64,000 nucleotides of DNA from Candidatus Daviesbacteria bacterium (GCA_016187035.1 JACPKL010000012.1:8925-72924); one strand, 5' to 3'; shown: positions 6,495 to 22,514, counted from the first letter of the stretch. Translations and numbers: made by a program. The notes: a model not told the origin generated them from the sequence alone.

Positions 6495-6642
6495 CTAAAT
6501 GATTCTACCACAGTTGATGTATAATTAGATTTATGAGTAGCGATGATCCGAATCAGACACCATCCAGTAATAATCAGCAACAAGTAACAGATGGATCACA
6601 GCATATTGATACCCTACTAAAACAACGCCAGTTGTTAGTTAG

Positions 6643-6745: not shown

Positions 6746-8377
6746 ATGAGTAAAATACTAAACAAAATATTTCAGCACAAAATTCTACTATTAATTCTTG
6801 TTTTAGCCTTTATATTAAGAATTTATGATATTAATAATAATCCCAAATCTATGTATGGGGATGAATTAACTTTAGTTTATGATGCTTATTCTTTATTGAA
6901 AACAGGACAGGACCAAAAAGGCCAGGCTTGGCCACTTTTCTTTTCCATGGGAGGAGGCAGGCCGGCAGGTTATATTTATGCCACCATTCCCTTTGCTGCT
7001 CTTTTTGGGCCTACAGCGCAAGCTGCCAGGGCTGTATCTGTTTTATCAGGAGTGGGAATTGTGCTGCTAATATATTTAGTATCCAAAATCCTCATCTTAA
7101 GAAAAGTTGGATTACTGGCTGCTTTGACTGCTGCTATCACCCCCTGGGAACTTAATCTCTCAAGAGGAGCATTTGAATCACATTTTGCCCTTTTTTTATC
7201 TATGCTGGGTTTATATTTTTTCCTTCTGGCTCAAAAAAGACAAGTTTTTTACCTTTTTTCAGCTTTAAGTTTCTTATTAGCTATGCAGGCTTATTTAACC
7301 TTTGTTTTATCAGTCCCTCTTTTTATGGGAATACTTGTATATTTTTTTAAAGATAAATTAAGGTTTTCTCCTATTACTGCAGCTTCAATTTTAATATTAA
7401 TTTTATCCCTTTCATTTAGTATTTATACTTCTGTCAGCAGAGGATCAAAAGACAGGGTTGGGAATTTATTTATATATAATCAATCCGAATATCAAAATAT
7501 AATTGCGGATAAAGTCAGGAGGGAAAGACTTTTTAGTCCTGCTTCTCCACAGTTAGTTCTTAGATTGCATAATAGGTACTTAGAATTTACTAATTTATTT
7601 TTTCAAAATTACCTGAACAGTTTTGGACTGGATTTTTTAATTTTAAACGGGGATAAAAATATCAGGCACAATCCAACTTCTTTAGGCCAAATCTATTGGG
7701 TCGGATTTCCTTTAATGGCATTTGGATTAATAATGTTATTTAAAAATTACAAAAAAAGTTTAGCTTTACTATTCGGGTGGCTATTAATTAGTCCTCTGCC
7801 GTCAAGTTTAGTTGGTCAGCCGCATGCTATCAGGAGCTCTTTTATGCTTCCGCCGCTGATAATTTTAATGGGGGCAGGTTTATATTATTTAGTTAAATTA
7901 AAAGGTCAAAAGTTAAGATGGTTTAAGCTTACACTTTTTATATTATTTTTGGTTGAGCTGCCAATTTTCTTATATAGATTTTATTTATTATCACCTGCTT
8001 TAAACACCTTATTTTGGTCTTATAGCGCCAAAATTGCTTCAGAAGTTGCTTTGGAAAATAAAGGTAAGTACCAATATATTATTTTATCTACCAGTATTCC
8101 GGATATGGAATTTGCCTACCCGGTATATGCCAAAATAGAACCAAAAGAAGTACATTACACAAATTTACATAAAACAAATTTTGGAGAACATCAATTTCTA
8201 AAATACGGCAATATTTATTTAGGCTCTATTCCTTCTACCAGAGTCAGGCAAATCTTAAGGAGCCTTGAAGGACCAGTGTTATATTTAGGGCCAATTGAAG
8301 ACAGAGGGTTAGTAGATAATGAGCAGATTACCAGAAACAAAGATGAAAGCCCTTTATTTGTAGTATCTACTAAATGA
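6746..8377 (+). CDS. GT-C family membrane glycosyltransferase (ArnT/PMT, GT39/GT83-like)
   Basis: 543 aa. An N-terminal TM helix is followed by the loop YGDELTLVYDAYSL (DE-type motif), many TM helices and a soluble C-terminal domain. Confidence 0.65.
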   Translation: MSKILNKIFQHKILLLILVLAFILRIYDINNNPKSMYGDELTLVYDAYSLLKTGQDQKGQAWPLFFSMGGGRPAGYIYATIPFAALFGPTAQAARAVSVLSGVGIVLLIYLVSKILILRKVGLLAALTAAITPWELNLSRGAFESHFALFLSMLGLYFFLLAQKRQVFYLFSALSFLLAMQAYLTFVLSVPLFMGILVYFFKDKLRFSPITAASILILILSLSFSIYTSVSRGSKDRVGNLFIYNQSEYQNIIADKVRRERLFSPASPQLVLRLHNRYLEFTNLFFQNYLNSFGLDFLILNGDKNIRHNPTSLGQIYWVGFPLMAFGLIMLFKNYKKSLALLFGWLLISPLPSSLVGQPHAIRSSFMLPPLIILMGAGLYYLVKLKGQKLRWFKLTLFILFLVELPIFLYRFYLLSPALNTLFWSYSAKIASEVALENKGKYQYIILSTSIPDMEFAYPVYAKIEPKEVHYTNLHKTNFGEHQFLKYGNIYLGSIPSTRVRQILRSLEGPVLYLGPIEDRGLVDNEQITRNKDESPLFVVSTK

Positions 8378-8863: not shown

Positions 8864-9223
8864 TTATGATAGAAGTTGTTTGTTTAGTTTACTAAGCAGC
8901 TCCTCCATCTCAAAGGGCTTTAAGATAAAACCGTCTGCTCCTGCCTCCTTGGCAATTTCTTCTGTGTCTTGCAGGGCAGATAAAATAATGATGGGAATAT
9001 GTTTGACTCTAGCATCTTTTTTAACTAGTCTAGTTATTTCCACCCCCCCGATTCCAGGCATCCAAATATCCAAAAGTACTAAATCAGGCATAAAATCCTT
9101 GATAATTTTTAATATCTTTTTACCAGAGGTTATGGATTTTATTTCCCACCTGTCTTCTTTTAGTATGGTTGTTAAAATTTCCACAATCCCTTCATCATCA
9201 TCACAAATAAGAATCTTTTTCAT
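8864..9223 (-). CDS. response regulator, receiver domain only (CheY-like)
   Basis: ILICDDDEGI ... DLVLLDIWMPGIGG ... IPIIILSA carries the conserved receiver acidic pocket, phospho-Asp and Lys context. Confidence 0.85.
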   Translation of the reverse strand: MKKILICDDDEGIVEILTTILKEDRWEIKSITSGKKILKIIKDFMPDLVLLDIWMPGIGGVEITRLVKKDARVKHIPIIILSALQDTEEIAKEAGADGFILKPFEMEELLSKLNKQLLS

Positions 9224-9255
9224 GATTTCAAAAACCTCTGTCAGTTTGAGGGAGT

Positions 9256-10446
9256 TTACCTTAAGCGAGCCAGCGACTCGAAGGGTGGCACCCTTGCTCG
9301 CATAGACCTTTTGAAATAGGCCCTGGGCAGTTTAAAGCTAAAGACAGACCCTTCTCCTTTGATGCTTTTCACCCAAATTTCACCCTGGTGTCTTTGAATG
9401 ATCTCATGGCAAATATGAAGACCTAATCCCAAACCGGAAAAGCTTTTGCGGATGGTATTGTTGACCTGATAAAAAGGTTCAAAGATTTTTTTGAAGTTTT
9501 TTTGGGCAATACCAATACCAAAATCCTGGATGGCAACAGTAATAAAATTACGGCCTCCTGTTAAGCTGACTATGATTTTGTCTGCTTTTGGTGAATATTT
9601 AATGGCATTGGAAATTAAATTCGTGAGGACCTGGCTAAGTCTGTATTTATCAGCAAAAACAGGCGCTGCTATGGCTTTTTCAAGCACAATCTTGTGAAGA
9701 GGTGAGATGGCTTGCAAGTCCTCAATTTGTTCTAAAAGCAAATTTTGCAGGTCAAATTTTTCTTTTTGCAATTCTAATTTGCCGCTTTGAATACAGGAAA
9801 CATCCAGCAAAGAGGCCACCAGAGAGTTTAATCTGTCCAGCTGATTTTCCATTTTAGATAAATAGGAAACCAGCTCCCCTTTGTCGGGAAAACGACGCAG
9901 GAGTATTTGGGAAAAACTTTTCAAGGTGGTTAAGGGAGTTTTCAGCTCATGTGAGGCAATACTGATAAACTTATCCCGGGCTTTAATAGCCTGCTCAAGG
10001 TGATGATAGATTCTGGCATTGGTAACATCCAGGGCAATTCTCACAGCTAATTCTTCTGCGGTGGTCAAATCATGACGGCTAAATTGTCTGCTGCGAGAAG
10101 AATTAATCAGGGTAAGGGCGCCGATTGTTTCTCCTTTGGTAACAAGCGGAACAATGATCATTCTTGGAACAAACTTTGCCTGGCCTGTTTTTAAAACTCT
10201 GCTGACTTGAAAAAAATGGGATTTTGGCACAATTTTAACTTGTTTAGGATCTTTCGAAGCTGAGCTGGTCAGCTGGATATTCTTGTTCTCATCAATCAGA
10301 TCTATGGCGCAACAGTCTGCTAAGTTTAAGACAATAAACTGGCTGATCTTGTTTAAACTGGGAGCCAGCTCCAGTTGCGAGGATAAGATTTTACTGGCCT
10401 CAGAGATTAATCTTAGATAGTTTTGATCTTTGGCTGTATTTGTCAT
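9256..10446 (-). CDS. sensor histidine kinase with N-terminal GAF-like domain
   Basis: H-box SHELKTPLT, N-box LISNAIKY and G-boxes DFGIGI / GLGLGL. No TM segment, so it is a cytoplasmic sensor. Confidence 0.85.
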   Translation of the reverse strand: MTNTAKDQNYLRLISEASKILSSQLELAPSLNKISQFIVLNLADCCAIDLIDENKNIQLTSSASKDPKQVKIVPKSHFFQVSRVLKTGQAKFVPRMIIVPLVTKGETIGALTLINSSRSRQFSRHDLTTAEELAVRIALDVTNARIYHHLEQAIKARDKFISIASHELKTPLTTLKSFSQILLRRFPDKGELVSYLSKMENQLDRLNSLVASLLDVSCIQSGKLELQKEKFDLQNLLLEQIEDLQAISPLHKIVLEKAIAAPVFADKYRLSQVLTNLISNAIKYSPKADKIIVSLTGGRNFITVAIQDFGIGIAQKNFKKIFEPFYQVNNTIRKSFSGLGLGLHICHEIIQRHQGEIWVKSIKGEGSVFSFKLPRAYFKRSMRARVPPFESLARLR

Positions 10447-10567: not shown

Positions 10568-12883
10568 CTACTCATACCTTAGTGCATTCAAGGCAGATAT
10601 CTTGGTAGCTCTTTTGGCAGGATAAATACCAGTGCCAATTCCAACAAGCAGGGAAAGGAAGATTACTGCCAAAACAAAGGTAAAGGGAATATATGAGACA
10701 TCCACAAACCCTACTCCTTTAAAGATGGCAAAAACAGATAAAATCACGCCCAGCAGTTTCCCCATCAGAAAGCCTAAGATAATACCGATGATCCCTCCAA
10801 AGAATCCCATGATCATAGATTCTGTTAAAAACAATTCCTGGACTTCTGAGGATTTCATTCCCATGGCTTTCATTAGTCCCACCTCCCTGGTTCTCTCAAG
10901 GAGTGATACTGTTAAAGTATTAAACATGCCAAGCGCTGCTACAGCCAGGGCTACCATGCCAAGTAAAGCCAGTATTGTCCTTAGAGTATTAAACAAGGAG
11001 TTGATTTGAGCCACAGTATCAGCAACAGAGCGGGTAGCATAACCCATGGCCTCAATCTGGCGTCTAGTTTTGGCAAGTGAGCCCTGGTCTTTAACTACTA
11101 CCTTAACCTGGGAATAGTTAGTTACTCCTAATGATCTTAAATCAACAAATGGTACATAAAATACAGGAGTTTTTTCATCAGGGGTAACCCCTAAAATAGT
11201 GTAATCTTCTGCCTGGGATTCTACTTTTTGTTGACTGTCATCAGTTAATTCTCCCAGTATTACAAATGAGGCAGAGAACTTCTTGCCTATGGCCTCATTT
11301 TCTTTAATGCCTAAGATTTTAAGCAAGCTGCGGTTGACAATAGCCTGTTTTTTAGCAGCAGAGGATAAAGTAACTGTTTTGGCTTCAGGTGTTTTAATAA
11401 CCCCTGATTCTGAGGCAATCTCCACAAAATCTAAATTAGCAGAACCAGAGGCATCTGTTTGAGTGGAGGTGACACCCAATACTTTAGCAGAGTTTAGGCT
11501 AGATGGTTTGACAGTAGTATCTTTAAATACCAGGTTCATCCTGGCAATATATCCTTTTTTCTGGGTCTGGGAATTATCTGGTTCCCTTAAAACTTTATAC
11601 CTGCCTGCCTCACAATCTCCTTTTTCTTTGTCACAGCTTTCCTGTTTCCAAAGCAGCACATCTGCTTTAATCCAAATACCCAAAGGTTTGCCATCACTAT
11701 CTGCTCCCGCTTTGCCATCATTAGAATCAGATAAATATGTCCCTCCCCAGACTTTTTCTCCCTGGTATTTTCCTTCCACTCTTTTGGTATAGCCTAGGAT
11801 TTTAGCAGCAGCAGAGGGAGATTCTCTGACCCTGATCCATTCATTAGGGTTAATGCTAAACTCCACATCAGCAATTTTGTCACCTATATTGTTCGAAGCC
11901 GAAGGCTGAGAACTATCAGTGCTTACTCCCAATACCTGATCCTTTCTGTCTGGCACAACCATTGACAGTTCATTTGAGTCAAAGATCTTCCCCTCCACAG
12001 GTTTTATCGCAGATTGTTTTAAATAATCAGAAGTTACCCCGTAAACTGCCGTATCAGACACTGAAGATTGGTAGCTGATTCTGCCTACCACAGCAATTAA
12101 TGGTAAAGCCATGCCAACTTCGGGGATATCTTTTAAACTGTTTAAGGTTTTATCATTAATTTTTACCTTAGAGCCTGATTGGGGAGAAACATCAGTCTGC
12201 CTCATTTCATCAAGCCTGGCTACCCTGGTTATTACTAACTGCTGGAGCCCATAACCAATGGAAACCAAAAAGACTATTGCTCCAATACCAATGGCCATGC
12301 CTCCCACAGTTACCATGCTTCTGACCTTTTTAGTCTGCATATTCCTGATAGACAGCTCTATTAAATCCAGCCTGGAGATGGAATTTTGCTGAGTATTATT
12401 TAGAAAACTTACAGCTCTGGTATAAAACTTGGCCCAGGCAGGATGGAATTTTAAATTCAGCCTATCTGTCATTCCCGCGCGACGCTTCGAAGAAGCTAGT
12501 CCCCTTGTGGGGAAAGCGGGAATCCACCTCAACCTGCTTAATTTAAGGACTATCTGGGTATCTATTAGATAGAGACTTAACAGTAAGGCAAAGCTTAAAA
12601 AATGCCAGAAGGTATGTTTAAACAGTAACCAGGTTGCTTTAAGGGAGGCTCTGGTGAGTTTGTGGGTGATTAAGAACTTACCTGAACTGATAATCCAAAG
12701 AGCCAGTTTAACAAGCAGTTTACCAACCCCTTTTGTCATTCCGAGCCCTTCGACTTTGCTCAGGACAGGCTCCGTCGAGGAATCTCCAGATTGCCGCGTC
12801 GCTTCGCTCCTCGCAATGACAGCGGGTCTAGCTTGCCCAGCGACAGGGTTTAGTTTTCTAAAAAACCTTGATCTTTTAATCAT
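10568..12883 (-). CDS. FtsX/MacB-type ABC transporter permease with large extracytoplasmic domain; N-terminal ~137 aa doubtful
   Basis: MacB-type N-terminal helix IRNMQTKKVRSMVTVGGMAIGIGAIVF and C-terminal FtsX domain (RTREVGLMKAMGMK). The first 137 codons contain two translated repeat copies. An alternative start is ATG 12472..12470. Confidence 0.75.
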   Translation of the reverse strand: MIKRSRFFRKLNPVAGQARPAVIARSEATRQSGDSSTEPVLSKVEGLGMTKGVGKLLVKLALWIISSGKFLITHKLTRASLKATWLLFKHTFWHFLSFALLLSLYLIDTQIVLKLSRLRWIPAFPTRGLASSKRRAGMTDRLNLKFHPAWAKFYTRAVSFLNNTQQNSISRLDLIELSIRNMQTKKVRSMVTVGGMAIGIGAIVFLVSIGYGLQQLVITRVARLDEMRQTDVSPQSGSKVKINDKTLNSLKDIPEVGMALPLIAVVGRISYQSSVSDTAVYGVTSDYLKQSAIKPVEGKIFDSNELSMVVPDRKDQVLGVSTDSSQPSASNNIGDKIADVEFSINPNEWIRVRESPSAAAKILGYTKRVEGKYQGEKVWGGTYLSDSNDGKAGADSDGKPLGIWIKADVLLWKQESCDKEKGDCEAGRYKVLREPDNSQTQKKGYIARMNLVFKDTTVKPSSLNSAKVLGVTSTQTDASGSANLDFVEIASESGVIKTPEAKTVTLSSAAKKQAIVNRSLLKILGIKENEAIGKKFSASFVILGELTDDSQQKVESQAEDYTILGVTPDEKTPVFYVPFVDLRSLGVTNYSQVKVVVKDQGSLAKTRRQIEAMGYATRSVADTVAQINSLFNTLRTILALLGMVALAVAALGMFNTLTVSLLERTREVGLMKAMGMKSSEVQELFLTESMIMGFFGGIIGIILGFLMGKLLGVILSVFAIFKGVGFVDVSYIPFTFVLAVIFLSLLVGIGTGIYPAKRATKISALNALRYE
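12467..12526. repeat. MITE-like nested-palindrome repeat (GTCATTCC...GGAATCC family) inside the permease ORF
   Basis: tgtcattcccgcgcgacgcttcgaagaagctagtccccttgtggggaaagcgggaatcca is the reverse complement (about 90 percent identical by eye) of 22296..22350. Confidence 0.8.
12734..12822. repeat. MITE-like repeat (GTCATTCCGAG ... CTCGCAATGACA) inside the permease ORF
   Basis: The termini tgtcattcc / gcaatgacag and the internal gagattgccgcgtcgcttcgctcctcgcaatgac unit are shared with 14596..14634, 14942..14970 and 56782..56875. It is translated as VIARSEATRQSGDSSTEPVLSKVEGLGMT. Confidence 0.8.
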
Positions 12884-12968: not shown

Positions 12969-13598
12969 TCAGACAAGTTTTTTGTTTATGAACTTTCTTT
13001 TAGCTTCAACCCAATTTATCCTTTTCTCGCTAATAATTTGACCTGCAAGCATTTTATAGTACTTATCATTCTTCCCTGTTTCATTTGCCAAAACAGCTCC
13101 TGCTATCATATCTGCAACATTAACCCGTTTTACCTCTTTACTGTCAACATGATGGATAACTGGTAATTTTGGAAGCAGTTGCCTTAAGGATTTATCAAAT
13201 TGCAGAGTGTCATAATCCCTGGAAAAATGACGGTCAAAAATAATTTCCTTAATATCCTGATAAAAACTGAATACGTCGTTTAAAAGCAGCCAACAAAGCA
13301 GGGCAAAGTGTTCTGGCGTATCAGGTATTTTCCTGCCCATTTTTTCAACTTCTAAAATGAAGATTTCAAAATCCTCTTTGGTAATTTTTTCAAAGAATAA
13401 TTGTTTTGTTTTATCTCCGGCAGTATAAAATTTGAGTTCTCCTGTTTGCTTTCTGATATCTCCCTTTTTCTTGAGTGTTTTAAATAGCTGGTCTATAACT
13501 ACAGGAGTATTTGTCGAAACAGCAGCAATCACAATTACTTTATCTTTTACATCAGGCAGTGTGCCTGATTCATCAATAAAAATAGTAAATTTATCCAT
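12969..13598 (-). CDS. DUF3800 domain protein
   Basis: The N-terminus FTIFIDESGTLPD is characteristic of DUF3800. The gene sits between the ABC ATPase and permease genes. Confidence 0.65.
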   Translation of the reverse strand: MDKFTIFIDESGTLPDVKDKVIVIAAVSTNTPVVIDQLFKTLKKKGDIRKQTGELKFYTAGDKTKQLFFEKITKEDFEIFILEVEKMGRKIPDTPEHFALLCWLLLNDVFSFYQDIKEIIFDRHFSRDYDTLQFDKSLRQLLPKLPVIHHVDSKEVKRVNVADMIAGAVLANETGKNDKYYKMLAGQIISEKRINWVEAKRKFINKKLV

Positions 13599-13642: not shown

Positions 13643-14587
13643 TCATCCCTTTACCCCTGCCCCTTTAGGCAAATGGTCTCCATCTCCTCTTTTAATATCT
13701 ATGGTTTTTAGTAATTTCTCTTTATCACGATTTCCAAACTTTTTAATAACAGTCCCGTCAAACATCTGTAAGGCTTCCTTGGCATATTTTAGGTATTCCA
13801 AATCATGGGTAACCATAATAATGGTTTTACCCTTTTCCTTTGTCATCCCCGACCCGATCGGGGATCCACTGTTATTTGTATGGATTCCCGCCTGCGCGGG
13901 AATGACAGAAGAAGGCGTAGGGCGGTTTAACCTGACCAGAAGTTCCATTAACTCCTGGCCGGACTCAAAGTCCAAGTTTCCTGTTGGCTCATCTGCAATA
14001 AGTACCTGGGGACTGGTAATTAAAGCCCGGGCTAGCGCAATTCTTTGCTGCTGGCCAGAGGATAATTCTGAGGTTTGGTAGTTAGCCCAGTTAGCCATGC
14101 CAATGCTTTGCAAAATCTGTCCTGCTTTTTGAATACCGGTTATTTTATCTTCTCCCAGTAAAGACAAAGGGAAAGCCACATTTTCAATCACAGTTAAAGC
14201 TTTAATCCAGTTTGGCTGCTGGTAAACCATGCCTACATGCTCTTTCCTAAATTGGGACCTGTCATCCTCACTTGTCATTCTGTCATCCTGGCTTGTCCAG
14301 GATCTGATTCTGGAGTCCTCCTCCACGTTTCGCTCTGAGTCGTCCCCAGAATGACGTGAGGTATGGTACAAGTCTTTATCTAAAAATACCACTGTGCCGG
14401 TAGTTGGTTCTTCCAGTCCTAAGATGGTATGAAGAAGGGTTGATTTGCCACAGCCTGATGGCCCAAAGATAATTAAGAAATCCCCCTGGTAAACCTCAAA
14501 AGAGATATCCTTTAATATCTCTACCTGCTGTACTCCCACAGTAAATGATTTAGATAAATTCTTAACTTGTATAACTGTGCTGCTCAT
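13643..14587 (-). CDS. ABC transporter ATP-binding protein (LolD/MacB-type) carrying two in-frame repeat insertions
   Basis: Walker A GPSGCGKST, signature LSSGQQQR, Walker B LIADEPT and H-loop VTHD are present. Two segments absent from the paralog at 52815..53480 coincide with repeat copies. Confidence 0.9.
   Translation of the reverse strand: MSSTVIQVKNLSKSFTVGVQQVEILKDISFEVYQGDFLIIFGPSGCGKSTLLHTILGLEEPTTGTVVFLDKDLYHTSRHSGDDSERNVEEDSRIRSWTSQDDRMTSEDDRSQFRKEHVGMVYQQPNWIKALTVIENVAFPLSLLGEDKITGIQKAGQILQSIGMANWANYQTSELSSGQQQRIALARALITSPQVLIADEPTGNLDFESGQELMELLVRLNRPTPSSVIPAQAGIHTNNSGSPIGSGMTKEKGKTIIMVTHDLEYLKYAKEALQMFDGTVIKKFGNRDKEKLLKTIDIKRGDGDHLPKGAGVKG
13841..13908. repeat. MITE-like double-hairpin repeat inside the ATPase ORF
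   Basis: tgtcatccccgacccgatcggggatcc ... ggattcccgcctgcgcgggaatgacag has the same two-hairpin layout as 24188..24257. It is translated as SVIPAQAGIHTNNSGSPIGSGMT. Confidence 0.85.
14259..14360. repeat. MITE-like repeat cluster (GTCATCC / GAATGAC units) inside the ATPase ORF
   Basis: ctgtcatcctcacttgtcattctgtcatcctggcttgtccaggatc ... ccccagaatgacgtgagg is translated as RHSGDDSERNVEEDSRIRSWTSQDDRMTSEDDRS. Confidence 0.75.
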
Positions 14588-14595
14588 ATGTCCTT

Positions 14596-14634
14596 TGTCA
14601 TTGCGAGGTCGCTCAAAGCGACCGTGGCAATCTC
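14596..14634. repeat. palindromic unit TGTCATTGCGAGG..GGCAATCTC abutting the 3' end of the GIY-YIG gene
   Basis: tgtcattgcgaggtcgctcaaagcgaccgtggcaatctc overlaps the GIY-YIG stop codon by 2 nt. The inverted partner lies at 14942..14970. Confidence 0.8.
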
Positions 14635-14929
14635 ATTTAATAATTTCTTCATACAAATCATTAAAACCAGGATTTATCTTTCTTACCAAATCAACTTTCT
14701 TTTTACGCGGGCCTGCTTTTATTTGTTTTTCTCTTGTTATGGCTTCGTTAATATCATTAAATATTTCATAATAAACAAGTTTAACTACGTTATACTTTGA
14801 GGTAAAACCAGATACCATCTTTTGTTTGTGTTCATACATACGTCTTATTAAATTATTTGTTACACCTGTATAGAGCACAGTGTTCATTTTATTTGTGGCA
14901 ATGTATACATAGTATTGTTTTGACTGCAT
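14633..14929 (-). CDS. GIY-YIG nuclease family protein (UPF0213/YhbQ-like)
   Basis: YYVYIATNKMNTVLYTGVTNNLIRRMYEHK contains the GIY-(x)-YTG and R..EH motifs of the GIY-YIG fold. Confidence 0.85.
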   Translation of the reverse strand: MQSKQYYVYIATNKMNTVLYTGVTNNLIRRMYEHKQKMVSGFTSKYNVVKLVYYEIFNDINEAITREKQIKAGPRKKKVDLVRKINPGFNDLYEEIIK

Positions 14930-14941
14930 AAAACAATTATA

Positions 14942-15060
14942 GAGATTGCTTCGCTATGCTCGCAATGACAGAAAAACTCTCCCCAGAATGACGAAACCCA
15001 TACCCGGAATGACCGGAACCCGAACGTCATCTTTACCAGAATGACGCTTTGCGTCATTTC
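14942..15060. repeat. cluster of palindromic units (GAGATTGC..GCAATGACA, then four GAATGAC half-sites)
   Basis: gagattgcttcgctatgctcgcaatgaca is followed by ccagaatgacg, cggaatgaccgg, acgtcat and ccagaatgacgctttgcgtcatttc. The last hairpin contains the stop codon of the 1546-aa gene. Confidence 0.75.
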
Positions 15061-18000
15061 CCTATTCCTCCCAAAAACCCAAAAGCTTCCTGTAAGTTGG
15101 TGATTACTAAATTTAAGGCATTCTCTGTAGCCTTTGGAGTAATAGTGACAGTATCAATGGAGTTACCTAGATTCCCTGCTTTATCTTTGGAAATTGCCCT
15201 AAGGTGATAAACTTTAGATGGGGTTAAATTAGAAATAATTACCAGATGGTTAAAGGTTAAATTACTATCTTCCTGGGTTTTTTGGGCATAACTTACTCCT
15301 GTCCCTTCCCCAAACTCTACTTGGGTGGTAGAGGGTTCATCACTATTCCAGGAAACAACCAGTTGGGCTGTTTGTTCCTGGGCAGTGCCTGAGACAGGTG
15401 GGATGTTTGATCCTTCAACATTAAGATCTGAGATGGCCGGTGGTCTGGTATCTGTGGCTGTGGTTAACCTTTGGGAATCAGAGCTTGCTTCATTGCCTAT
15501 CTTATCCCTGCCTTTAACTACCAATATATAATCTGTCTGGGGCAGTAAGCTTCTGACAATCATCTTATGTTCACCTTTGGTCAAGGCTACATTTACCTCA
15601 TCCCTGGCATCTTGTGGTTTTCCTTCTGGATAGTAAGTGACAATAGAGGAAACTTCTGTATTGGTAGTCCAGGAAACCAGGATGGTGGACTGGGCAGTAT
15701 TGGCCACCTGCTGGATCCTCACCCCTGATATTTTTGGCCTGGGAAGAGTGGTAAAGTCCAACACTGTCCCTTCATATTCAGAATTATCTGAATCAAAAGT
15801 ATTGATCTTGTAATAATACTTTGCTCCATCATCTAAACCTGTTAATTCTGCTGTATAAGTGGTCTCAGAGGTTGAGGTGGAGATTTCCTTGGATCCTCCA
15901 AATGAGGTAGTCTTGCCATAGTATATTTTAACTTTACTGGCATCTTTGGAAGTAAACTGGATTATTCCTGAAGTTAAACCGATGTTTTTGGCAGAAACAT
16001 CTTTAACAGTTGGTGCAGAAGAAGTAGCAAAGGATTTCTCATCAGATGTTCCGGTATTACCATCCTCATCAGTCCATTTAGCTTTGTAGTAATAGGTGGT
16101 ACCGGCTGTTAATCCTGTTAGCTGGATAGAATGGGAAGAGACCTGGTCAGAGTTGGATGGTTCAACACTTCCATAGCTTCCACTGGTTGTCCCATACTGG
16201 ATCTTGGAATCAGCACTCCTGGAAGTTGTCCAGGTGATAGTAGACTTTTTGGTAGTAATACTGCCTGCAGATGGCCCGGTAGAAAGTGTTGGAGCAGAAG
16301 TCCATTTGCCTGTTGGAGTAATGGATACAGCATTAGTACCTGAAGAATCAGCAGAGGCTCCGTCCCTGGTATATATTTTGTAGTAATATTTGGCAGATGA
16401 AGGGGTATTGTCTACATAAGACAAGCCTGTTGTGGTGCCTGTCAAAGAAAATGTGCTATTGTCTGTTGAGCGGTAAACTCTGTAGGTTAAATTCCCTGCT
16501 CCCTGGTAAGTTGGTGCTGTCCAGGTTAAAGTGGCATTCCAGGTAGAGGTGGATTTAATGGATGAATCAGAAGCCACTAAGTTGCCTACATTATCAGGGT
16601 CTGTAGAGTTTAAGGTAAAAGTGCCGGTAATGTAGTTGGAAGGTGAATAATTAGGGGTAGAGGCATTATCAACTGCTACCACATATACAGTATTACTGCC
16701 TTTGTTAACACTGGCTAAGGCAGCAGCAGAGACAGTCCTGGTAGTACCGTTATCAATATATGTGGAAGTGTTGCCGGTGATAGTGGCATAAGTAGAAGGC
16801 GGGGCAGTGTTAATCATATAGTAATAATGGGCAACTGTTTGGCCGGAAGTTGGTGTAGCTGCAGGCCAGCTCAAAGCGTAAGAGTTGGAGGTAGAAGTGC
16901 TTGGGGTTACAGTAACCGTATCTGTTCCTAGAAAGCTGGGAGCTGCCCCGCCGTAGGAGATATTACAGGTCCTGATAGTCCCGTCTGACGAAGTATTTCC
17001 GGCAATATCTGCTGTCCTAAAGTAGATGACATTAGTCCCTGAGACAATTGATGAGTTATCCTGGGCCACTGTTAAAGTCCTAGACGTTGCAGAGGTGGGC
17101 ATGTAAGTTAAGCCTGTGGCAGTATCAGTGGTAGTGCCTAACCATGTTCCACTTGTTGAGTTAATCTGGTACTGCCAGCCCAACAGATTAGAATTACTAT
17201 CAGAGGAGGCAGAGCTTCCTGAGGTTGGCCAGTTAAAGCTCATATCAACTACATTGGAAAAGTTACCAGAAGCACAGGAAATATATGTGGTATTGGTTGG
17301 GGCAGTATTGTCAAATTTAAACTGGAAAGAAGCAGAGGTGGCAAACAAATTGCCGGAGTTATCAATAGCTTTAATGTTTAAGTAGTAGGGGGAGCTTGAG
17401 GTAGACAGCCAGGTGGAACCACGATATGAGGTAGTAGCAAAATCAATGGAGGTTGAGGAGGTGATAAACTGGCAGGTGGTGCCTGATGTTGAGACAATGG
17501 TCGTACCCAGCAGTCCTTTAGACGTTGCCGGATCACCATCTGAATCTGCTCCTAAATACAAACAATACCCTTTTAACCCACTACCACCTGAATTATCTGC
17601 CCCGGCTGTCCAGGAAAAATATGGTGATGAATTATTAGTCCAGCCATTGGAAGCAACAGTTGTCCCTCCGTTTGACCTGGTCATGGCAATTGAGGAGGCA
17701 TTAGTCGCTGGTACTGTAGTATCTGTAGTTAAGCCAATACTGATATTAGGAAGTAAAGGAGTATCTGCTCCGCCAAAAGCTAAAATTGCCTTAACCGAGA
17801 TCTTTTGGGAAGTAATAGATAATGCCTGCATGGCTGCCTGGGTTAACTGGGCAGGAGTATTGGTATATGTAGAAGTAGCATCTGTAGCATTAGCCCAGGC
17901 ACCAGCAGTATAGTACTGCCACCTTGAACCTGTGGTATATGAACAAGAAGAACCATCATCCAAACATATCTGGTAAGTAATTGAGGCATTGCCCGAGTGG

Positions 18001-19694
18001 GTGGCATCAGAGGTGCAAGTTGAGCCGGACAGCGTCCCTTCACAAAATGTATCCCAGGAATTTACCTGGGCATTGGAATAAGCAGAGGTGGTATATATAG
18101 AATATGTACCCTGCTTGGATAAAGTAAAATCATCCACTTTGACTGTTTTACCGGCTTTAACTAACAGTCCTGCATCAACAGAAGAAGCAACTCCGGTAAT
18201 TGTGCCTGTGAGCTTATACCAGCCTGTTGATCCTGCTTCAGCAGTATAGGTTGTGGTAACAGTTGAGCCATTATAGTAAAGCTGGGCAACTGTAGTATCA
18301 ATAGCAGCTCCTGAGTTATAATAGGCATAGACAGAGAGATCATAGGTTGAGGTATCCCCAACATTTATAGACTGGTAGACTTTCCCATCAGATACAGAGC
18401 CTATAGTTATGGTATTTCCACCGGCGGCTGACCGGCCGGAAGTAGAGGAAAAAGATTGGGAGATTGCTACGGGATCACTGGCGCAGCGAAAGCCAATGTT
18501 GCCGTTCGTATCGCTAGGCGCATTGTACAGAAGCAACGTAAAGGCTCCTGCGTTGGCGCCATCATTCCAATCGCCACCGCGGAGGAAACCATTATTTAAA
18601 GCTCCACCATACACTTGGCCCATGCCCTGGGCAGATAGGTAAGAGGCAGAAGAGGGGCCGTAAAGAGCCAGGGCTCCTGTTTGGATATTGGCATGGTTCC
18701 ACTCCACCCAGCCTGCAGTAGTATCAATGGCAGAGGATTGGATATCATTGGTCCATTCCCAAACATTGCCCGCAATATCCCAGATATATGCTCCGTTGGA
18801 AAGGGTAAAGACTCTTTTTTGGTTGCCTGCTGTGGCTGACTGGCCGCTTGAGGTATTGGTGGGGCAGGCAGAGGGAGCTTCAGTAGTGCCGGCTGAATCA
18901 GTGTAAGCGCAGGCATTATTGCCGGTGTCGGTGGTTGAGGCAACCCTGGCTAAGGCCGGGGAGTTGTCATTGTGGCCGGCATACAGATAGCCTGAGTTAA
19001 CGCTGCCGCCTGACCAGTTAGAGCCTTGGGCTTCGGCGTTGCGGGTAATAGTCATCCACTCGTTGTTGGTTTGCAGATGGGCAGCTGTGGAGCCAACAGT
19101 TACAGCAGAGCAGCGGGTAACAGAGGTGGTTTGGGAAATATTGGCAATAGGGTAGCCTGAGGCAACTGATACTACAGCCCTGGAGTTGGCAGAGGTACAG
19201 GCTGCGGTGTTATCCGGCCAGGTTCTGTAGCCGGTATCAGAGGTGGTTAAACCGGTGGTTAAATCTGAGGTGGCAGCACACTTGGCTTCATACTTTTGGA
19301 TTAAAAAGTTGGTGGTGGAAAAGGTGGCATTACCAGGCACTTCTACCCATCCAGAAGGAGGAACAGCTGCTACAGACCAGGAGGTGTTGTTAGAGGCAAA
19401 GGCTGGATTGGAGAGTTTGTTAACCCCTGAAACCGGGTGGGCGCCGGTATTGTCTACTGTGATTAGGGAAGTATCATAAGTATAGTTGGCAGCAGTAGAG
19501 GCATTAAAAGCCCAGTTTTTATTGGTGTCATTTAGGGCAAAGATCTTAGGCAATAGGTACTCGTTAGTTAAGTACCCAAAGGTAAAGAGGATGCCAGCGG
19601 AGAAAGCTACAAAAAGGCAAAGGTTAAACTGCCATTTGGCAATGGTGATTTTTTTGGTAAAAAAGTTGTGTACAATGTATCTAACAAATCTCAT
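15054..19694 (-). CDS. DGR variable (target) protein: N-terminal TM anchor, FGE-sulfatase/C-type-lectin-fold domain carrying the VR, long FN3/Ig-like repeat array
   Basis: TM helix FNLCLFVAFSAGILFTFGYL. FGE-sulfatase-type motifs are FLIQKYEAK, AHLQTNNEWMTIT, IAGNVWEWTND and GFRCASD. These are followed by about 1100 aa of T/S/G-rich modules with repeated W.T...S...V.YG...Y.Y... FN3-like patterns. Confidence 0.85.
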   Translation of the reverse strand: MRFVRYIVHNFFTKKITIAKWQFNLCLFVAFSAGILFTFGYLTNEYLLPKIFALNDTNKNWAFNASTAANYTYDTSLITVDNTGAHPVSGVNKLSNPAFASNNTSWSVAAVPPSGWVEVPGNATFSTTNFLIQKYEAKCAATSDLTTGLTTSDTGYRTWPDNTAACTSANSRAVVSVASGYPIANISQTTSVTRCSAVTVGSTAAHLQTNNEWMTITRNAEAQGSNWSGGSVNSGYLYAGHNDNSPALARVASTTDTGNNACAYTDSAGTTEAPSACPTNTSSGQSATAGNQKRVFTLSNGAYIWDIAGNVWEWTNDIQSSAIDTTAGWVEWNHANIQTGALALYGPSSASYLSAQGMGQVYGGALNNGFLRGGDWNDGANAGAFTLLLYNAPSDTNGNIGFRCASDPVAISQSFSSTSGRSAAGGNTITIGSVSDGKVYQSINVGDTSTYDLSVYAYYNSGAAIDTTVAQLYYNGSTVTTTYTAEAGSTGWYKLTGTITGVASSVDAGLLVKAGKTVKVDDFTLSKQGTYSIYTTSAYSNAQVNSWDTFCEGTLSGSTCTSDATHSGNASITYQICLDDGSSCSYTTGSRWQYYTAGAWANATDATSTYTNTPAQLTQAAMQALSITSQKISVKAILAFGGADTPLLPNISIGLTTDTTVPATNASSIAMTRSNGGTTVASNGWTNNSSPYFSWTAGADNSGGSGLKGYCLYLGADSDGDPATSKGLLGTTIVSTSGTTCQFITSSTSIDFATTSYRGSTWLSTSSSPYYLNIKAIDNSGNLFATSASFQFKFDNTAPTNTTYISCASGNFSNVVDMSFNWPTSGSSASSDSNSNLLGWQYQINSTSGTWLGTTTDTATGLTYMPTSATSRTLTVAQDNSSIVSGTNVIYFRTADIAGNTSSDGTIRTCNISYGGAAPSFLGTDTVTVTPSTSTSNSYALSWPAATPTSGQTVAHYYYMINTAPPSTYATITGNTSTYIDNGTTRTVSAAALASVNKGSNTVYVVAVDNASTPNYSPSNYITGTFTLNSTDPDNVGNLVASDSSIKSTSTWNATLTWTAPTYQGAGNLTYRVYRSTDNSTFSLTGTTTGLSYVDNTPSSAKYYYKIYTRDGASADSSGTNAVSITPTGKWTSAPTLSTGPSAGSITTKKSTITWTTSRSADSKIQYGTTSGSYGSVEPSNSDQVSSHSIQLTGLTAGTTYYYKAKWTDEDGNTGTSDEKSFATSSAPTVKDVSAKNIGLTSGIIQFTSKDASKVKIYYGKTTSFGGSKEISTSTSETTYTAELTGLDDGAKYYYKINTFDSDNSEYEGTVLDFTTLPRPKISGVRIQQVANTAQSTILVSWTTNTEVSSIVTYYPEGKPQDARDEVNVALTKGEHKMIVRSLLPQTDYILVVKGRDKIGNEASSDSQRLTTATDTRPPAISDLNVEGSNIPPVSGTAQEQTAQLVVSWNSDEPSTTQVEFGEGTGVSYAQKTQEDSNLTFNHLVIISNLTPSKVYHLRAISKDKAGNLGNSIDTVTITPKATENALNLVITNLQEAFGFLGGIGK
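18473..18592 (-). repeat. DGR variable repeat (VR)
   Basis: Gap-free 120-nt match to TR 21699..21818 with 10 mismatches, all at TR adenines on the coding strand. It encodes NGFLRGGDWNDGANAGAFTLLLYNAPSDTNGNIGFRCASD (aa ~368-407). Confidence 0.92.
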
Positions 19695-19719
19695 TTCACA
19701 CTTTCTATACTATCGGCTA

Positions 19720-19748
19720 TTGACAAATTAGCTACTCTTTGCTAGTAT
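19720..19748 (+). promoter_or_regulatory. plus-strand TTGACA-17-TAGTAT promoter in the second copy of the conserved 25-nt motif
   Basis: tatactatcggctattgacaaatta (19706..19730), TTGACA 19720..19725 and TAGTAT 19743..19748. Confidence 0.4.
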
Positions 19749-19764
19749 TAAGCTACTAAACTCT

Positions 19765-19799
19765 CCTGCAAGGCCGAAAGGTGTTTGCAGGATTTTTTT
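19765..19799 (+). terminator. intrinsic terminator (plus strand)
   Basis: cctgcaa (19765..19771) pairs with ttgcagg (19785..19791) across a 13-nt loop, followed by T7 (19793..19799). Confidence 0.55.
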
Positions 19800-19810
19800 A
19801 TCTGTATTTT

Positions 19811-20350
19811 TTATTTTTCCTTCACAAACGATAAGATATTCTGTTTGGTAAGCAATGTGTATTTTGAACAGACGTTAATAAGCGCATAGCTGCGTTGGTG
19901 AGAAAAGCCAACATACTCCAGTATTTTCCTTTTCTCTATGGCTTTTTTAATAGCTGGCAGGAGATCTGTATCAGAGGATATGAGAATAATTCTTGTACAT
20001 AGGTTTTCATAAGCAGCAACCAAAATATCTACGGCTATATTTACATCTACACCCTTTTCGTGATAGACACCGTCAGATTTTAAAAGATAACCCAGAGAGT
20101 AATTAATATTATGTTTTTTGAGATGTTCGAATAGTTTTTGTTGATTGGCAAGCATCTTTTTGCCTTTTTCGCTTTGAGGGTTAGTGCTTACCTTGCCAAC
20201 ATAATATGTAGCGTGAACTATTTCTTCGTTATTGGCTAACATTTTGACAAACCCGGAAAAGTTAAAATTGAGCAAATTATGAAGGTCTAGCCCCTTCAGC
20301 TTAAAATAGAAGTTGCTGCCGTCTATAAGTACAATGCATTTATTTTTCAT
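19811..20350 (-). CDS. NYN (LabA-like) domain protein located between DGR RT and target
   Basis: VLIDGSNFYFK ... EKGVDVNIAVDIL ... ISSDTDLLPAIKKA. It is a clear paralog of 46449..46979, sharing ANQQKLF.HL, LGYLL, HEKGVDV.IAVDI and ISSDTDLLPAI. Confidence 0.75.
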   Translation of the reverse strand: MKNKCIVLIDGSNFYFKLKGLDLHNLLNFNFSGFVKMLANNEEIVHATYYVGKVSTNPQSEKGKKMLANQQKLFEHLKKHNINYSLGYLLKSDGVYHEKGVDVNIAVDILVAAYENLCTRIILISSDTDLLPAIKKAIEKRKILEYVGFSHQRSYALINVCSKYTLLTKQNILSFVKEK

Positions 20351-20388
20351 TTTCTACATAAAACACAGAGGAATTACCCCTGTATAAA

Positions 20389-21450
20389 CTATGGCAAATT
20401 CTGATCAAAAAGGCAAGTTTTAAGATGATAAGCATTGGCATAATTTAAGTGTCCGGCAAAAGAACTTTTCATCAGGTCTAAGGATTTTTGGCTCACTTGC
20501 CCTTTTTGGACCGCCTTTTCCTTCTTTTTAAGTTTTCTCTGAAACCTTCGCAGGGTTGATCCCCGAACTAATACATGGTCATAAAAAGTCCGGTAACCAA
20601 CGAAAGCCACACCGTTTTTAGTATTTTGGATAACAGATTTTTTAGGATGAAGGGTAAGCCTTAGGTTATCCCAAAGAAATACTCTTACTTTTTCTTTAAT
20701 CTGTTTGAGGTGTTCCTTATCCGGGTGGATAATATAAAAATCATCCATGTATCTGCCATACCAGTGTTCTCTTAAGTTTTCCTTAACAAAATGGTCCAGC
20801 TCGTTTAAATAAACATTGGCAAACAGCTGGGAGGTTAAATTGCCAATCGGCAAGCCTTTTCTTTCCTCAATTGAAATAACCTCTTTTGGCAAGCCCTGGA
20901 TTTTATTCCTGTTTAAGAAAACTTTATGGGTGGTGATGACTGTTAAGATCAACTCCTTAATTTTGGGATCAGTTATTTTCTTTTCAATTAGTTTAATTAA
21001 AATATCCCAGGAAATGGAAGGAAAAAACTTGGTAATATCACATTGGAGGATATATAACTGCTTTTCTCTACCATAAACAGAACGGGCAGCCTGGAGGAAC
21101 TTTTTTAATCTGCTTTTGGCAAAATGGGTTCCTCTGCCTTTTCTGCAGGCATAGGCATCTTCGATAAAGGCTTTGTCAAATAAAGGTTCGATAACAGATA
21201 CCAAGCCGTGGTGGAAAACCCTATCCCTAAAGTTTGGAGCAGCCACATGTCTTGTCTTAGGATCAGTTACCACAAAGTAAGTATATGGATAAGGGGAGTA
21301 ATGGTTGGTTAAAAGCTCCCATCTCAGTTTAAACAAATTGTCTTCCAGGAAAAGGTCAAATTTACACACCTGCCTTTTATAGCGATTATCACGTCTGGCT
21401 AAGCGGTAAGAATTTAATAAATGTTCAAAATTGCAAAGAGTATTAAACAT
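20389..21450 (-). CDS. DGR reverse transcriptase
   Basis: RT motifs include the DGR-typical LPIGNLTSQLFANVYLNELD ([I/L]GxxxSQ) and the catalytic YGRYMDDFYII (YMDD). The gene is adjacent to TR and avd. Confidence 0.9.
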   Translation of the reverse strand: MFNTLCNFEHLLNSYRLARRDNRYKRQVCKFDLFLEDNLFKLRWELLTNHYSPYPYTYFVVTDPKTRHVAAPNFRDRVFHHGLVSVIEPLFDKAFIEDAYACRKGRGTHFAKSRLKKFLQAARSVYGREKQLYILQCDITKFFPSISWDILIKLIEKKITDPKIKELILTVITTHKVFLNRNKIQGLPKEVISIEERKGLPIGNLTSQLFANVYLNELDHFVKENLREHWYGRYMDDFYIIHPDKEHLKQIKEKVRVFLWDNLRLTLHPKKSVIQNTKNGVAFVGYRTFYDHVLVRGSTLRRFQRKLKKKEKAVQKGQVSQKSLDLMKSSFAGHLNYANAYHLKTCLFDQNLP

Positions 21451-21698
21451 AAAATACCGGTATTAACTTATGAGCCCGCCTAACTTATAAGCGGGCTCAA
21501 TGTCTCGTCCCTTATCTAAATTTATCCTATTTACCTTCCATCCCTTTTGTAATTTGGGATGCAAGAATACAGGTATTATGTTTTCATAGGCCAAAGACCT
21601 TTGACGGAGAAAGCTCTGTGATCTTTTAAACCCTGGACAGATATCCTTGGATGTCTGCCACTCGTTCTGGCGATAAAGGGACACTTTCTTTTTCTTTT

Positions 21699-21818
21699 GA
21701 TCACTGGCGCAGCGAAAGCCAATGTTGTTGTTCGTATTGCTAGGCGCATTGTTCAGATTCAACGTAAAGGCTCCTGTGTTGGCGCCATTATTCCAATTGC
21801 CACCGCGGATGAAACCAT
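21699..21818 (-). repeat. DGR template repeat (TR)
   Basis: Lies between avd and RT. It has 33 adenines on the coding strand (hand count), 10 of which are substituted in the VR, while none of the 87 other positions differ. It is rich in AAY codons (..NWNNGANTGAFTLNLNNAPSNTNNNIGFRCASD). Confidence 0.92.
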
Positions 21819-21869
21819 CGGCACAAATGAGAACCTTCCCCATATTTAATATATCAGGTAACAATACTT

Positions 21870-22244
21870 TCATAAAAGAGCTTGTTGTTTTATGCCTTCT
21901 TTGCTTTCCTGGCATTTGACCCAGCCGGTCATTATCCTGCCTATCTCATTTAATTTTTCTGATGCCAGGGTATACTGCTTAACACTCATAAGTCTTAAAT
22001 CCTTAGTCAAACGGGTTAAAATCCGTAAACAATCCAGTTCATCTGAAATATTTTGCTGCATGACAGCTCTTTCCTGTCCCCTGGATTTATTGGCTTTAAT
22101 TAACAGTAAAAGTATAGATATGCAAAGTTCCTCCAGGTGTTTTCCTACGACCATTCTATGACTTTTCGGAATTCGGTTGATAACCGGAAACAGCCAGACC
22201 ACTAAATCATAGAATTTTTGGTAAATAATTAGTTGGTCAGCCAT
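21870..22244 (-). CDS. avd: DGR accessory variability determinant (Avd, four-helix-bundle protein)
   Basis: MADQLIIYQKFYDLVVWLFPVINRIPKSHRMVVGKHLEELCISILLLLIKANKS matches the Avd / 23S-rRNA-intervening-sequence four-helix-bundle family. The track ORF (to 22394) is extended 50 codons through a MITE, so I take ATG 22244..22242 as the start. Confidence 0.8.
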   Translation of the reverse strand: MADQLIIYQKFYDLVVWLFPVINRIPKSHRMVVGKHLEELCISILLLLIKANKSRGQERAVMQQNISDELDCLRILTRLTKDLRLMSVKQYTLASEKLNEIGRIMTGWVKCQESKEGIKQQALL

Positions 22245-22255
22245 AAAAAATCCAA

Positions 22256-22372
22256 TGTCATTCCGTGCTTGACACGGAATCCATATAATATGGATCCCCG
22301 CCTCCCCCACAAGGGGACTGGCTTCTTCGAAGCGTCGCGCGGGAATGACACTGGAAAAAACTGAATTCATAC
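22256..22372. repeat. MITE-like nested-palindrome repeat immediately upstream of avd
   Basis: tgtcattccgtgcttgacacggaatcc ... cgcgcgggaatgacactggaaaaaactgaattcatac. The inner part is the reverse complement of 12467..12526. Confidence 0.8.
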
Positions 22373-22429
22373 CAAGATTAGCCCGTATTATCAAGCTATT
22401 CTTGATATTGAGAACCCAGGCGACTCACT

Positions 22430-22514
22430 TGGTGCTGGTGAAGGGAGTCGAACCCTTACGGGCATAGCCCACTCGCTCTTAAGGCGAGCGCGTATACCAT
22501 TCCGCCACACCAGC
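22430..22514 (-). tRNA. tRNA-Leu (TAA)
   Basis: The reverse complement is GCTGGTGTGGCGGAATGGTATACGCGCTCGCCTTAAGAGCGAGTGGGCTATGCCCGTAAGGGTTCGACTCCCTTCACCAGCACCA. It has a long variable arm, the anticodon loop CTTAAGA and an encoded CCA. Confidence 0.9.

Follow-up and report, generated by a model that had tools for sequence, protein, structure and literature searches.

A probably complete diversity-generating retroelement with an internal variable repeat in Candidatus Daviesbacteria

A 64,000-nucleotide stretch of DNA from a Candidatus Daviesbacteria bacterium (GCA_016187035.1, JACPKL010000012.1:8925-72924; the whole 64-kb stretch is referred to here as the window, and positions are counted from its first letter) very probably carries a complete, chromosomal diversity-generating retroelement (DGR) of this member of the Patescibacteria, or Candidate Phyla Radiation (CPR). 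The element lies on the minus strand (-) and comprises the gene avd (accessory variability determinant), a template repeat (TR), a spacer, a reverse transcriptase (RT) gene and, beyond a slot of variable content, a target gene of 1546 codons that contains the variable repeat (VR). A first-pass annotation, made from the sequence alone, had recognised here the defining signature of mutagenic retrohoming, and all of its components, adenine-only mismatches between TR and VR, a DGR-type RT and Avd, are confirmed by the present analysis. DGRs are common and enriched in Patescibacteria, and the element is one more DGR in a group already known to be rich in them, moderately interesting rather than surprising. 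Its least ordinary feature is the internal position of the VR, which is rare for lectin-fold targets and went unremarked in the first-pass annotation. The conservation of this internal lectin-fold VR across a clade, a giant target with fibronectin type III (fn3) repeats that is tied to a MacB-type transporter, a variable cargo slot and a well-supported, clade-specific RNA structure are its less common features.

The TR (21699-21818, 120 nt, with 12-13 AAY codons in the VR frame) is non-coding and sits between avd and the RT gene, and the VR (18473-18592) lies 3.2 kb away on the same strand inside the 1546-aa open reading frame (ORF). Alignment of the two by MAFFT on the minus strand gave 120 columns with no gaps and 10 mismatches, at TR positions 21810, 21798, 21789, 21777, 21759, 21758, 21753, 21738, 21729 and 21728 (VR positions 18584, 18572, 18563, 18551, 18533, 18532, 18527, 18512, 18503 and 18502). 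At every one of these the TR has a coding-strand A and the VR has G (6), C (2) or T (2), and none of the 87 non-A TR positions differs. The TR is made up of 33 A, 30 C, 29 G and 28 T, and a hypergeometric calculation puts the probability of finding every one of the 10 mismatches on A by chance at P = 8e-7. The resulting codon changes from TR to VR are ATC to CTC, AAT to GAT (three times), ACA to GCA, AAT to CTT, AAC to TAC and AAC to GGC; A-to-N changes create a stop at no codon of this TR, and its theoretical repertoire is ~8.5e18 peptides. The likeness of TR and VR breaks off sharply at the 5' and 3' borders alike, and the same pair was the longest repeat of the region in a separate generic repeat search. 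The 64-kb window holds no further VR-like copy, since an A-free 15-mer (GGCTTTCGCTGCGCC), with up to 2 mismatches allowed, matches nothing but TR and VR. The repeat coordinates and gapless alignment of the first-pass annotation were thus reproduced by MAFFT and its ten pairs of mismatch coordinates by script, its hand counts (33 TR adenines, 10 of them and none of the other 87 positions differing) agree with the base counts, and its eight codon changes and both peptides are correct in the target reading frame. Non-adenine mismatches and indels, which it had named as evidence that would speak against a DGR, are both absent from the alignment.

An ordinary duplication or gene-conversion tract, with the adenine pattern arising by chance, has nothing in its favour beyond the existence of the repeat, and is practically inconceivable given the probability above, the DGR RT and Avd adjacent to the repeat and the recurrence of the adenine pattern in 12 independent TR/VR pairs of related loci. 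(Related loci and contigs compared with the window are given L-numbers, and homologous database proteins P-numbers.) Across these 12 pairs substitutions hit 174 of the 368 adenines of the TRs (85 to G, 56 to T and 33 to C), and 22 of 1048 non-A positions differ, 8 of the 22 being one fixed TR-C/VR-T difference at the uncopied 3' end (TR GCCAGCGAT, VR GCCAGTGAT). The last two TR adenines are each substituted in 0/12 pairs, a pattern that a cDNA start upstream of them, like that of the phage DGR BPP-1, would produce. A 150-aa ORF at 21463-21915 (-), which gene callers list in Logan contigs as a protein of 136 aa, covers the TR and spacer; given that it matches no family and coincides with structured RNA, it is most likely an artefact of the TR preserving the VR reading frame.

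The RT gene (20389-21450) encodes 353 aa with a match to Pfam RVT_1 (E = 3.5e-21), and has the motifs IGNLTSQ (aa 202-208) and YMDD (aa 234-237), which fit the DGR patterns [ILV]GxxxSQ, in RT domain 4, and YxDD. Its closest solved structure is the Bordetella phage bRT (PDB 8ub7, E = 2e-44, residues 4-350), compared with E = 5e-18 for group II intron RTs and ~1e-12 for retron RTs. That the enzyme might instead be a group II intron or retron RT unrelated to the repeats could draw on sub-threshold matches to the corresponding NCBIfam models (134 bits against a cut-off of 300 for group II TIGR04416; 65 bits against 235 for retron St85), and the RT is also far under the NCBIfam cut-offs for defence RTs. 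The full-length best match to bRT is 26 orders of magnitude better than that to group II RTs, IGNLTSQ is present, and Rfam detected no intron or msr/msd RNA in 21400-22450 at E up to 1 and only tRNAs window-wide at gathering scores, all of which leaves this alternative with a negligible probability. The RT is 50-63% identical to the RTs of ~25 Patescibacteria DGR loci, and these closest RTs all come from Patescibacteria metagenome-assembled genomes or environmental metagenomes. The avd gene (21870-22244) encodes 124 aa (calculated isoelectric point 9.4) and matches Pfam bAvd (E = 2e-23) and NCBIfam DivGenRetAVD (96.4 bits, cut-off 80). A longer, TTG-initiated avd ORF (21870-22394) is not supported; the Pfam match begins at its residue 55, and ATG 22244 is therefore the likely start. 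In these respects too the first-pass annotation holds: both RT motifs are present, the RT is of DGR type and does not group with group II or retron RTs, Avd is a complete ORF above its family cut-off, the TR-RT spacer is 248 nt long, and the coordinates of the RT, target and avd ORFs are right, with the gene of the slot, an NYN-domain gene, at 19811-20350.

The target gene (15054-19694, 1546 aa) is recorded at NCBI as a 'fibronectin type III domain-containing protein' (MBI2597496.1, Candidatus Daviesbacteria), encoded on an 85-kb contig. The protein starts with a hydrophobic N-terminal membrane helix (~19560-19634) and a disordered linker, continues with a predicted lectin fold of the type of the formylglycine-generating enzyme (FGE) at aa 105-415 (18450-19382), and ends in ~1100 aa of fn3-like repeats, Pfam matching fn3 and Pur_ac_phosph_N (purple-acid-phosphatase-N-type) repeats from about residue 1140. 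Structure prediction was needed to recognise the lectin fold because sequence-profile matches are only weak, Pfam FGE-sulfatase scoring 19.8 bits over aa 290-405 against a cut-off of 23.3 and FGE matches in a PDB profile search giving E = 0.002-0.1. Residues 1-450 were modelled by AlphaFold from an alignment of 59 homologues, with a mean predicted local distance difference test score (pLDDT) of 80.9; over aa 105-415 block means were 64-98, and pLDDT was >85 apart from 64-79 at about aa 250-280. The top Foldseek match of the model was the DGR variable protein TaqVP of Thermus aquaticus (5vf4, E = 2.6e-6), followed by FGE, Mtd (1yu0-1yu4, E about 2e-4 to 1e-3) and TvpA of Treponema denticola (2y3c, E = 3e-4). 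TaqVP, TvpA and Mtd are thus the best structural matches among DGR proteins, although their identity to the target is 13-15% and TM-scores are 0.25-0.41, low because the model includes the membrane helix, linker and extra insertions. The domain also has the FGE-family signatures GNVWEW and LRGG.W...GFRCA, and in the model a low-confidence linker at residues 418-425 joins it to the next domain. In this predicted structure the VR (codons 368-407) is the final strands of a C-type-lectin/FGE-fold domain.

With 1139 codons from the VR to the stop, the VR ends its domain, which it does in all known DGR targets, but not its protein, and the C-terminal placement typical of VRs is not seen. The lectin domain of TaqVP, TvpA and Mtd, in contrast, ends the protein. 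An internal VR occurs in every related locus whose assembly reaches it (15 seen; e.g. L007, L088, L090 and L092), 1.0-1.3 kb into the target gene (residues ~304-444 of ~1400-1560). A VR at the target C-terminus has been described as the 'near-universal' DGR organisation, a placement ascribed to the need for intergenic homing elements (Roux et al. 2021, PMC8144416). Internal VRs, which make the initiation of mutagenic homing (IMH) sequence overlap the coding sequence, are found mostly in Ig-type targets, and those catalogued comprise 9/34 Ig1, 9/10 Ig2, one CLec2 and one three-VR CLec1 target (Wu et al. 2018, PMC5758913). The element here shares with these DGRs its internal VR and the overlap of homing signals with coding sequence, and differs in that the internal VR is of lectin fold and is conserved across a clade. 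From the CPR DGRs of clade 2 in Roux et al. (PMC8144416), with which it agrees in host group, cellular rather than viral encoding, Avd and an FGE-type lectin-fold target, it departs in its N-terminal membrane helix, fn3 and purple-acid-phosphatase-N-like repeats and internal VR; targets of CPR DGRs typically have no recognisable transmembrane or other conserved domain, and their VRs are C-terminal (PMC8144416). The clade thus departs from the rule that the VR ends the protein, which means that homing signals can coexist with a reading frame, and makes it a natural test case for minimal homing signals. Distant homologues of the lectin domain (P0189-P0240, 37-48% identity) are proteins of 300-560 aa with a prepilin-type N-terminal methylation motif and a C-terminal FGE-type domain, that is, the conventional layout, and the target looks like a domain of this kind with ~1100 aa of fn3 repeats added behind it. 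One related locus (L094) has two tandem lectin domains in one target, with VRs at 6404-6520 and 7712-7828 that show 17 and 14 adenine substitutions respectively, both of them copied from a single TR.

As the VR is internal, its cis-acting homing elements must lie in coding sequence. BPP-1 requires a GC-rich IMH, located at the 3' end of the VR, and 4-34 bp further downstream a hairpin that is likewise GC-rich (PMC3240598). A GC-rich, never-substituted repeat 3' end is present here (GGCTTTCGCTGCGCCAGTGATC), and a candidate GC-rich DNA hairpin (CCGGCCGG-UCAG-CCGCCGG; 7 bp, 4-nt loop) lies at 18421-18439, 34 nt 3' of the VR and within the coding sequence, its size and distance falling within the 4-34 bp range of phage DGRs (PMC3240598). 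Its DNA fold of -7.5 kcal/mol (z = -2.2) is marginally better than those of shuffles. Most relatives have, equally far from the VR, a similar hairpin of 6 bp (GGCCGC/GCGGCC) and a loop of 3-4 nt, which in L090 is a compensated variant; in most loci these hairpins are not clearly better than shuffles, and they are weak or absent in L079 and L007. Coding constraint on a GRxAAGG peptide could account for the conservation of this hairpin.

The region around the TR encodes a structured RNA that is conserved, with covariation, in the related loci. A structured spacer (Sp) RNA of an A-rich linker, motifs and hairpins P1 and P3 lies 3' of the TR (21523-21698), with P1 at 21635-21659 and P3, closed by CC/GG and preceded by AAACAUAAU, at 21526-21573. 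The motifs between the hairpins, GCCAGAACGAGUGG (21658-21671), CAGGGUUU..GAUCACAG, AAACAUAAU and GUAAAUAGG, are near-invariant and single-stranded. The TR 3' end, GUGAUC (21699-21704), has its complement in the spacer as GAUCAC (21618-21623), and directly after GAUCACAG stands the 3' arm (21604-21617) of a long-range duplex that encloses the TR and whose 5' arm (AUGGGGAAGGUUCU, 21830-21843) lies ~12-25 nt upstream of the TR. RNAalifold analysis of 21 loci found compensatory changes in 18 of the 24 pairs of the two spacer hairpins; in the specified structure 93.3% of cells can pair, compared with 37-44% for slid partners, and the observed covariation score was reached by 0/500 shuffles. For the enclosing duplex, cognate arms in 22 loci average -13.9 kcal/mol against -8.4 kcal/mol for non-cognate arms, and in 21 of the loci the cognate arm comes out at rank 0-2 of 22 (permutation p < 1e-4). 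The duplex between TR and Sp is mostly invariant, with one covarying pair (CG 9, UG 6, UA 3), and the GAUCAC:GUGAUC pairing is consistent with a template-primer duplex. A covariance model of the clade (R1) has a single match in the window, 21523-21710, at 131 bits; it matches all held-out clade members and gives one weak match among more distant CPR DGRs, and it has no match in the Clostridia/Oscillospiraceae-type DGR loci searched (L008-L067). At E up to 1, the TR-spacer region has no match to any Rfam family. In the stretch that separates the Sp RNA from the RT start, the sequence can be read as a further hairpin (UGAGCCCGC...GCGGGCUCA, 21471-21499), whose counterpart in several relatives precedes a run of T; the DGR RNA may have its 3' end here. 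The BPP-1 ribonucleoprotein, as described from electron cryomicroscopy, has corresponding features, namely a stem-loop 3' of the TR, a primer duplex of TR with Sp and pairing between the TR flanks, and bioinformatic prediction placed such RNA elements in 207 of 278 DGRs with Avd (bioRxiv 10.1101/2023.10.23.563531). The TR-enclosing duplex here would be analogous to the 'cPRT Stop' duplex of BPP-1 (bioRxiv 10.1101/2023.10.23.563531), and the covarying RNA elements of this clade carry a structural model of one phage over to a distant lineage.

In all tested respects the element behaves like the BPP-1 paradigm, and its mechanism can be proposed by analogy. An RNA would be transcribed that begins ~25 nt before the TR and takes in the whole spacer, the long-range duplex of 21830-21843 with 21604-21617 would enclose the TR, and pairing of the spacer GAUCAC with the TR 3' GUGAUC would set up cis-priming by an RT-Avd complex. 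The cDNA would then be made across the TR with random nucleotides opposite adenines, and would replace the VR, the homing signals being the never-substituted 3' end GGCTTTCGCTGCGCCAGTGATC and possibly the hairpin 34 nt downstream. The predicted outcome is that up to ~20 residues, most of them encoded by AAY, are rewritten on the face with which this membrane-anchored surface protein of 1546 aa would bind its ligand. The likeness to the prototype (mtd-avd-TR-brt) extends to Avd, RT, adenine-only TR/VR differences, a VR that ends a lectin-fold domain, an unmutagenised 3' part of the repeat, a long-range duplex around the TR and a structured spacer pairing with the TR 3' end. The two differ in that the host here is a CPR bacterial chromosome and not a phage; that the target is downstream of the RT gene, whereas in BPP-1 it is upstream of avd; that the VR is internal, with 1139 codons after it; that the target is a membrane-anchored fn3-repeat protein of 1546 aa rather than a 380-aa tail-fibre tip; and that no difference between IMH and IMH* is visible and the sequence of the spacer RNA is clade-specific.

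The first-pass annotation had read the absence of non-A drift as a sign of current or recent activity of the element. Such activity is likely, with indirect support from that absence, from the VR divergence of two sister strains of the clade and from the end point of an assembled contig. The sister strains L007 and L096 have identical TRs and 21 differences in ~4 kb outside the VR (0.5%), but 22 of 118 VR positions differ between them (18.6%). A Logan contig (L001, from SRR12113422) matches the window at 100% identity from 22285 to 18564, stopping one base short of the A-templated site 18563. This break is not accounted for by the TR repeat because the longest exact TR/VR run, 29 nt, is shorter than the k of the assembler, which we take to be 31; the break at an A-templated site is a suggestive hint of VR heterogeneity in this element. 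Several observations weigh against this interpretation or against the wider reading of the locus as a functional DGR. VR variants of the target were sought in its 90% protein cluster, and none was found, the cluster having a single member. Only 10 of 33 TR adenines (30%) differ from the VR, against a family mean of 47%, as could result from homing that was rare or took place long ago. The VR is not C-terminal, so that its homing elements must overlap coding sequence, and the candidate hairpin is marginal. TR and VR are identical to the last base, and hence show no IMH/IMH* difference.

The low proportion of substituted adenines and the want of VR variants in the public protein collection would also fit an element that is structurally intact but in which homing has ceased, the 10 differences then recording past events only. 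That VRs can stay fixed for long is evident from a relative (L164), the same VR-truncated product of which is found on 14 contigs. Set against this are the absence of non-A drift across 87 positions of the TR/VR pair, the intactness of all ORFs and of the RNA structure (131 bits against the clade model), and an assembly that breaks exactly at an A-templated site. We regard cessation of homing as unlikely, if not strongly so, and favour an element that is or has recently been active.

Between the RT and target genes (window 19695-20388) lies the gene for a 179-aa NYN-domain protein (19811-20350 (-); Pfam NYN E = 1e-19). The first-pass annotation had placed this gene within a cassette of the order avd-TR-spacer-RT-NYN-target; its coordinates are right, but NYN is not part of the DGR, the slot being variable in relatives. 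The slot is empty in L007, L079, L084, L094, L096 and L100, and in L092 it is a ~370-nt gap with no ORF of at least 50 aa. In other loci it contains a Bro-N protein of 271-283 aa (L004, L088, L089, L090, L093 and L095), a pair of helix-turn-helix and PIN genes (L099), a Gp49/HigB-like gene (L082), a Panacea-domain gene (L101), Fic, Bro-N and KilA-N (L165), NYN as in the window (L164) or Bro-N with NYN (L166). Its coordinates where delimited are L004:3238-4071, L088:11182-12021, L099:11328-12028, L165:5501-8004 and L166:6358-7932. The slot looks like a recombination-prone hotspot for selfish or toxin-antitoxin-type cargo, and on these comparisons NYN is best described as interchangeable cargo of the slot and not a core DGR component. 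L002 and L003, Logan contigs from other runs in the series that yielded L001, end one base past the RT stop (window 20388), which hints that slot content differs between strains in those samples.

A role for the nuclease-like NYN protein as a functional DGR accessory, for example in processing the template RNA, would be suggested by its presence, as two different subfamilies, between RT and target in 3 of the ~20 related loci with a readable slot (window, L164 and L166). In one model of BPP-1 (PMC5703328) the template RNA is nicked and its 3'-OH serves as the primer of cDNA synthesis, a process to which an RNase could in principle contribute. The slot is, however, empty or occupied by other genes in most related loci, and conserved co-occurrence is not seen. 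NYN homologues at 62-83% identity number >2500, are very widespread in Patescibacteria, and mostly lie outside DGR contexts. A terminator-like hairpin separates RT and NYN, a second NYN paralogue of the window sits away from the DGR, a literature search found no link of NYN to DGR function, and the recognised DGR accessory genes are avd, HRDC, MSL and CH1 (PMC5758913). We therefore consider an accessory function very unlikely, and treat NYN as cargo. The second NYN-domain gene of the window (175 aa, 5967-6494 (-)) is located beside tRNA-Pro and is 75% identical to the slot NYN of L164. The closest NYN homologue (L159) adjoins an unrelated 1632-aa protein, with no RT nearby. A tblastn search of 158 loci had indicated that NYN was unique to the window, and this was overturned by the NYN genes in the slots of L164 and L166, which were found through the target protein.

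The VR of the window is intact, with no stops or frameshifts, and frame breaks occur in the VRs of several relatives. There is a 2-nt deletion in L095 (VR 9327-9443) that breaks the target frame, a 1-nt deletion in L166 (VR 9182-9298), and in L164 (VR 9148-9268) a 1-nt insertion together with TGA where its own TR has TAA. In L099 (VR 13165-13283) the VR has TAG where the TR has TAA, and in L165 (VR 9127-9246) TGA replaces a conserved Trp codon in TR and VR alike. All VR indels (L095, L164 and L166) fall in adenine runs. Many database homologues stop within the VR, four of them at the same 'AF*' position (P0132, P0134, P0140 and P0149), and the truncation of L164 is not a one-off assembly error, since the truncated product is found on the 14 contigs mentioned above. 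A TR that encodes stops runs counter to the usual AAY design rule. As the VR precedes ~1100 codons, the indels at adenine runs, TR-templated stops and shared 'AF*' ends raise the idea that homing in this clade might, besides diversifying a binding site, turn the entire giant surface protein ON and OFF reversibly, an idea that we advance tentatively and judge rather unlikely. The TR of the window has no stop-accessible codon, and its target could be switched off by indel errors only. Frame breaks affect 2 of 12 loci in an RT-selected, less biased set, and they leave the assignment of the window's own element untouched. A protein search with the first 450 target residues returned neither the 1546-aa protein itself nor its ~1500-aa homologues, for which reason the frequency of VR-truncated targets in the family cannot be estimated from it.

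The set of related Patescibacteria loci numbers ~25, and all that are long enough have the order avd-TR-RT-[variable slot]-target-ABC ATPase-MacB_PCD/FtsX permease. Target homologues are 58-62% identical overall (lectin part 44-61%, fn3 part 65-80%), and those of L007, L088, L090, L092 and L096 are of 1526-1558 aa. In the window, too, the target is encoded beside a MacB-type ABC transporter. The ATPase gene (13643-14587 (-); Pfam ABC_tran E = 8e-33) is a conserved neighbour of the target and is syntenic in L007, L088, L090, L092, L095, L096 and L164-L166, and the MacB_PCD/FtsX permease gene assigned by Pfam (10568-12883 (-)), another such neighbour, has syntenic counterparts of 48-62% identity in those related loci that are long. 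This fixed pairing is a lead to the role of the hypervariable protein. Patescibacteria are uncultivated and host-dependent, and targeted hypermutation is thought to drive their surface adaptation; the window provides a clean, fully annotated DGR example from this group.

The target-ATPase-permease block is unbroken in relatives, unlike in the window, where it is interrupted by a GIY-YIG gene (98 aa, 14633-14929 (-)) and a DUF3800 gene (12969-13598 (-)). The flanks of L164 (1-5220 and 15744-17158) and L165 (1-3388 and 15591-17152) encode a DUF87/TrwB-like ATPase, Replic_Relax, a serine recombinase and a TrbC/type IV secretion system pilin, a conjugative-element-like neighbourhood, whereas the window has no such genes nearby. 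A promoter scan did no better than shuffles. A tRNA-Leu(taa) gene (22430-22514 (-)) lies 185 nt upstream of avd, and L007 has a tRNA-Met gene (4-73). In L095 the block stands between two tRNA-Leu genes (2597-2681 and 16377-16459) that are adjacent in L092 (6222-6428). This tRNA placement suggests mobility of the DGR block as an island; a search of the window for an att-like repeat of tRNA-Leu in direct orientation that would bound it gave none of at least 13 nt. Between tRNA-Leu and avd there is a 14-nt inverted repeat (22251-22264 and 22342-22355, 93% complementary, 77 nt apart), which falls within the part of the longer avd ORF that precedes ATG 22244 and is spurious. The Logan contigs L001 and L002 both begin inside this inverted repeat, at 22285, as a dispersed repeat would cause.

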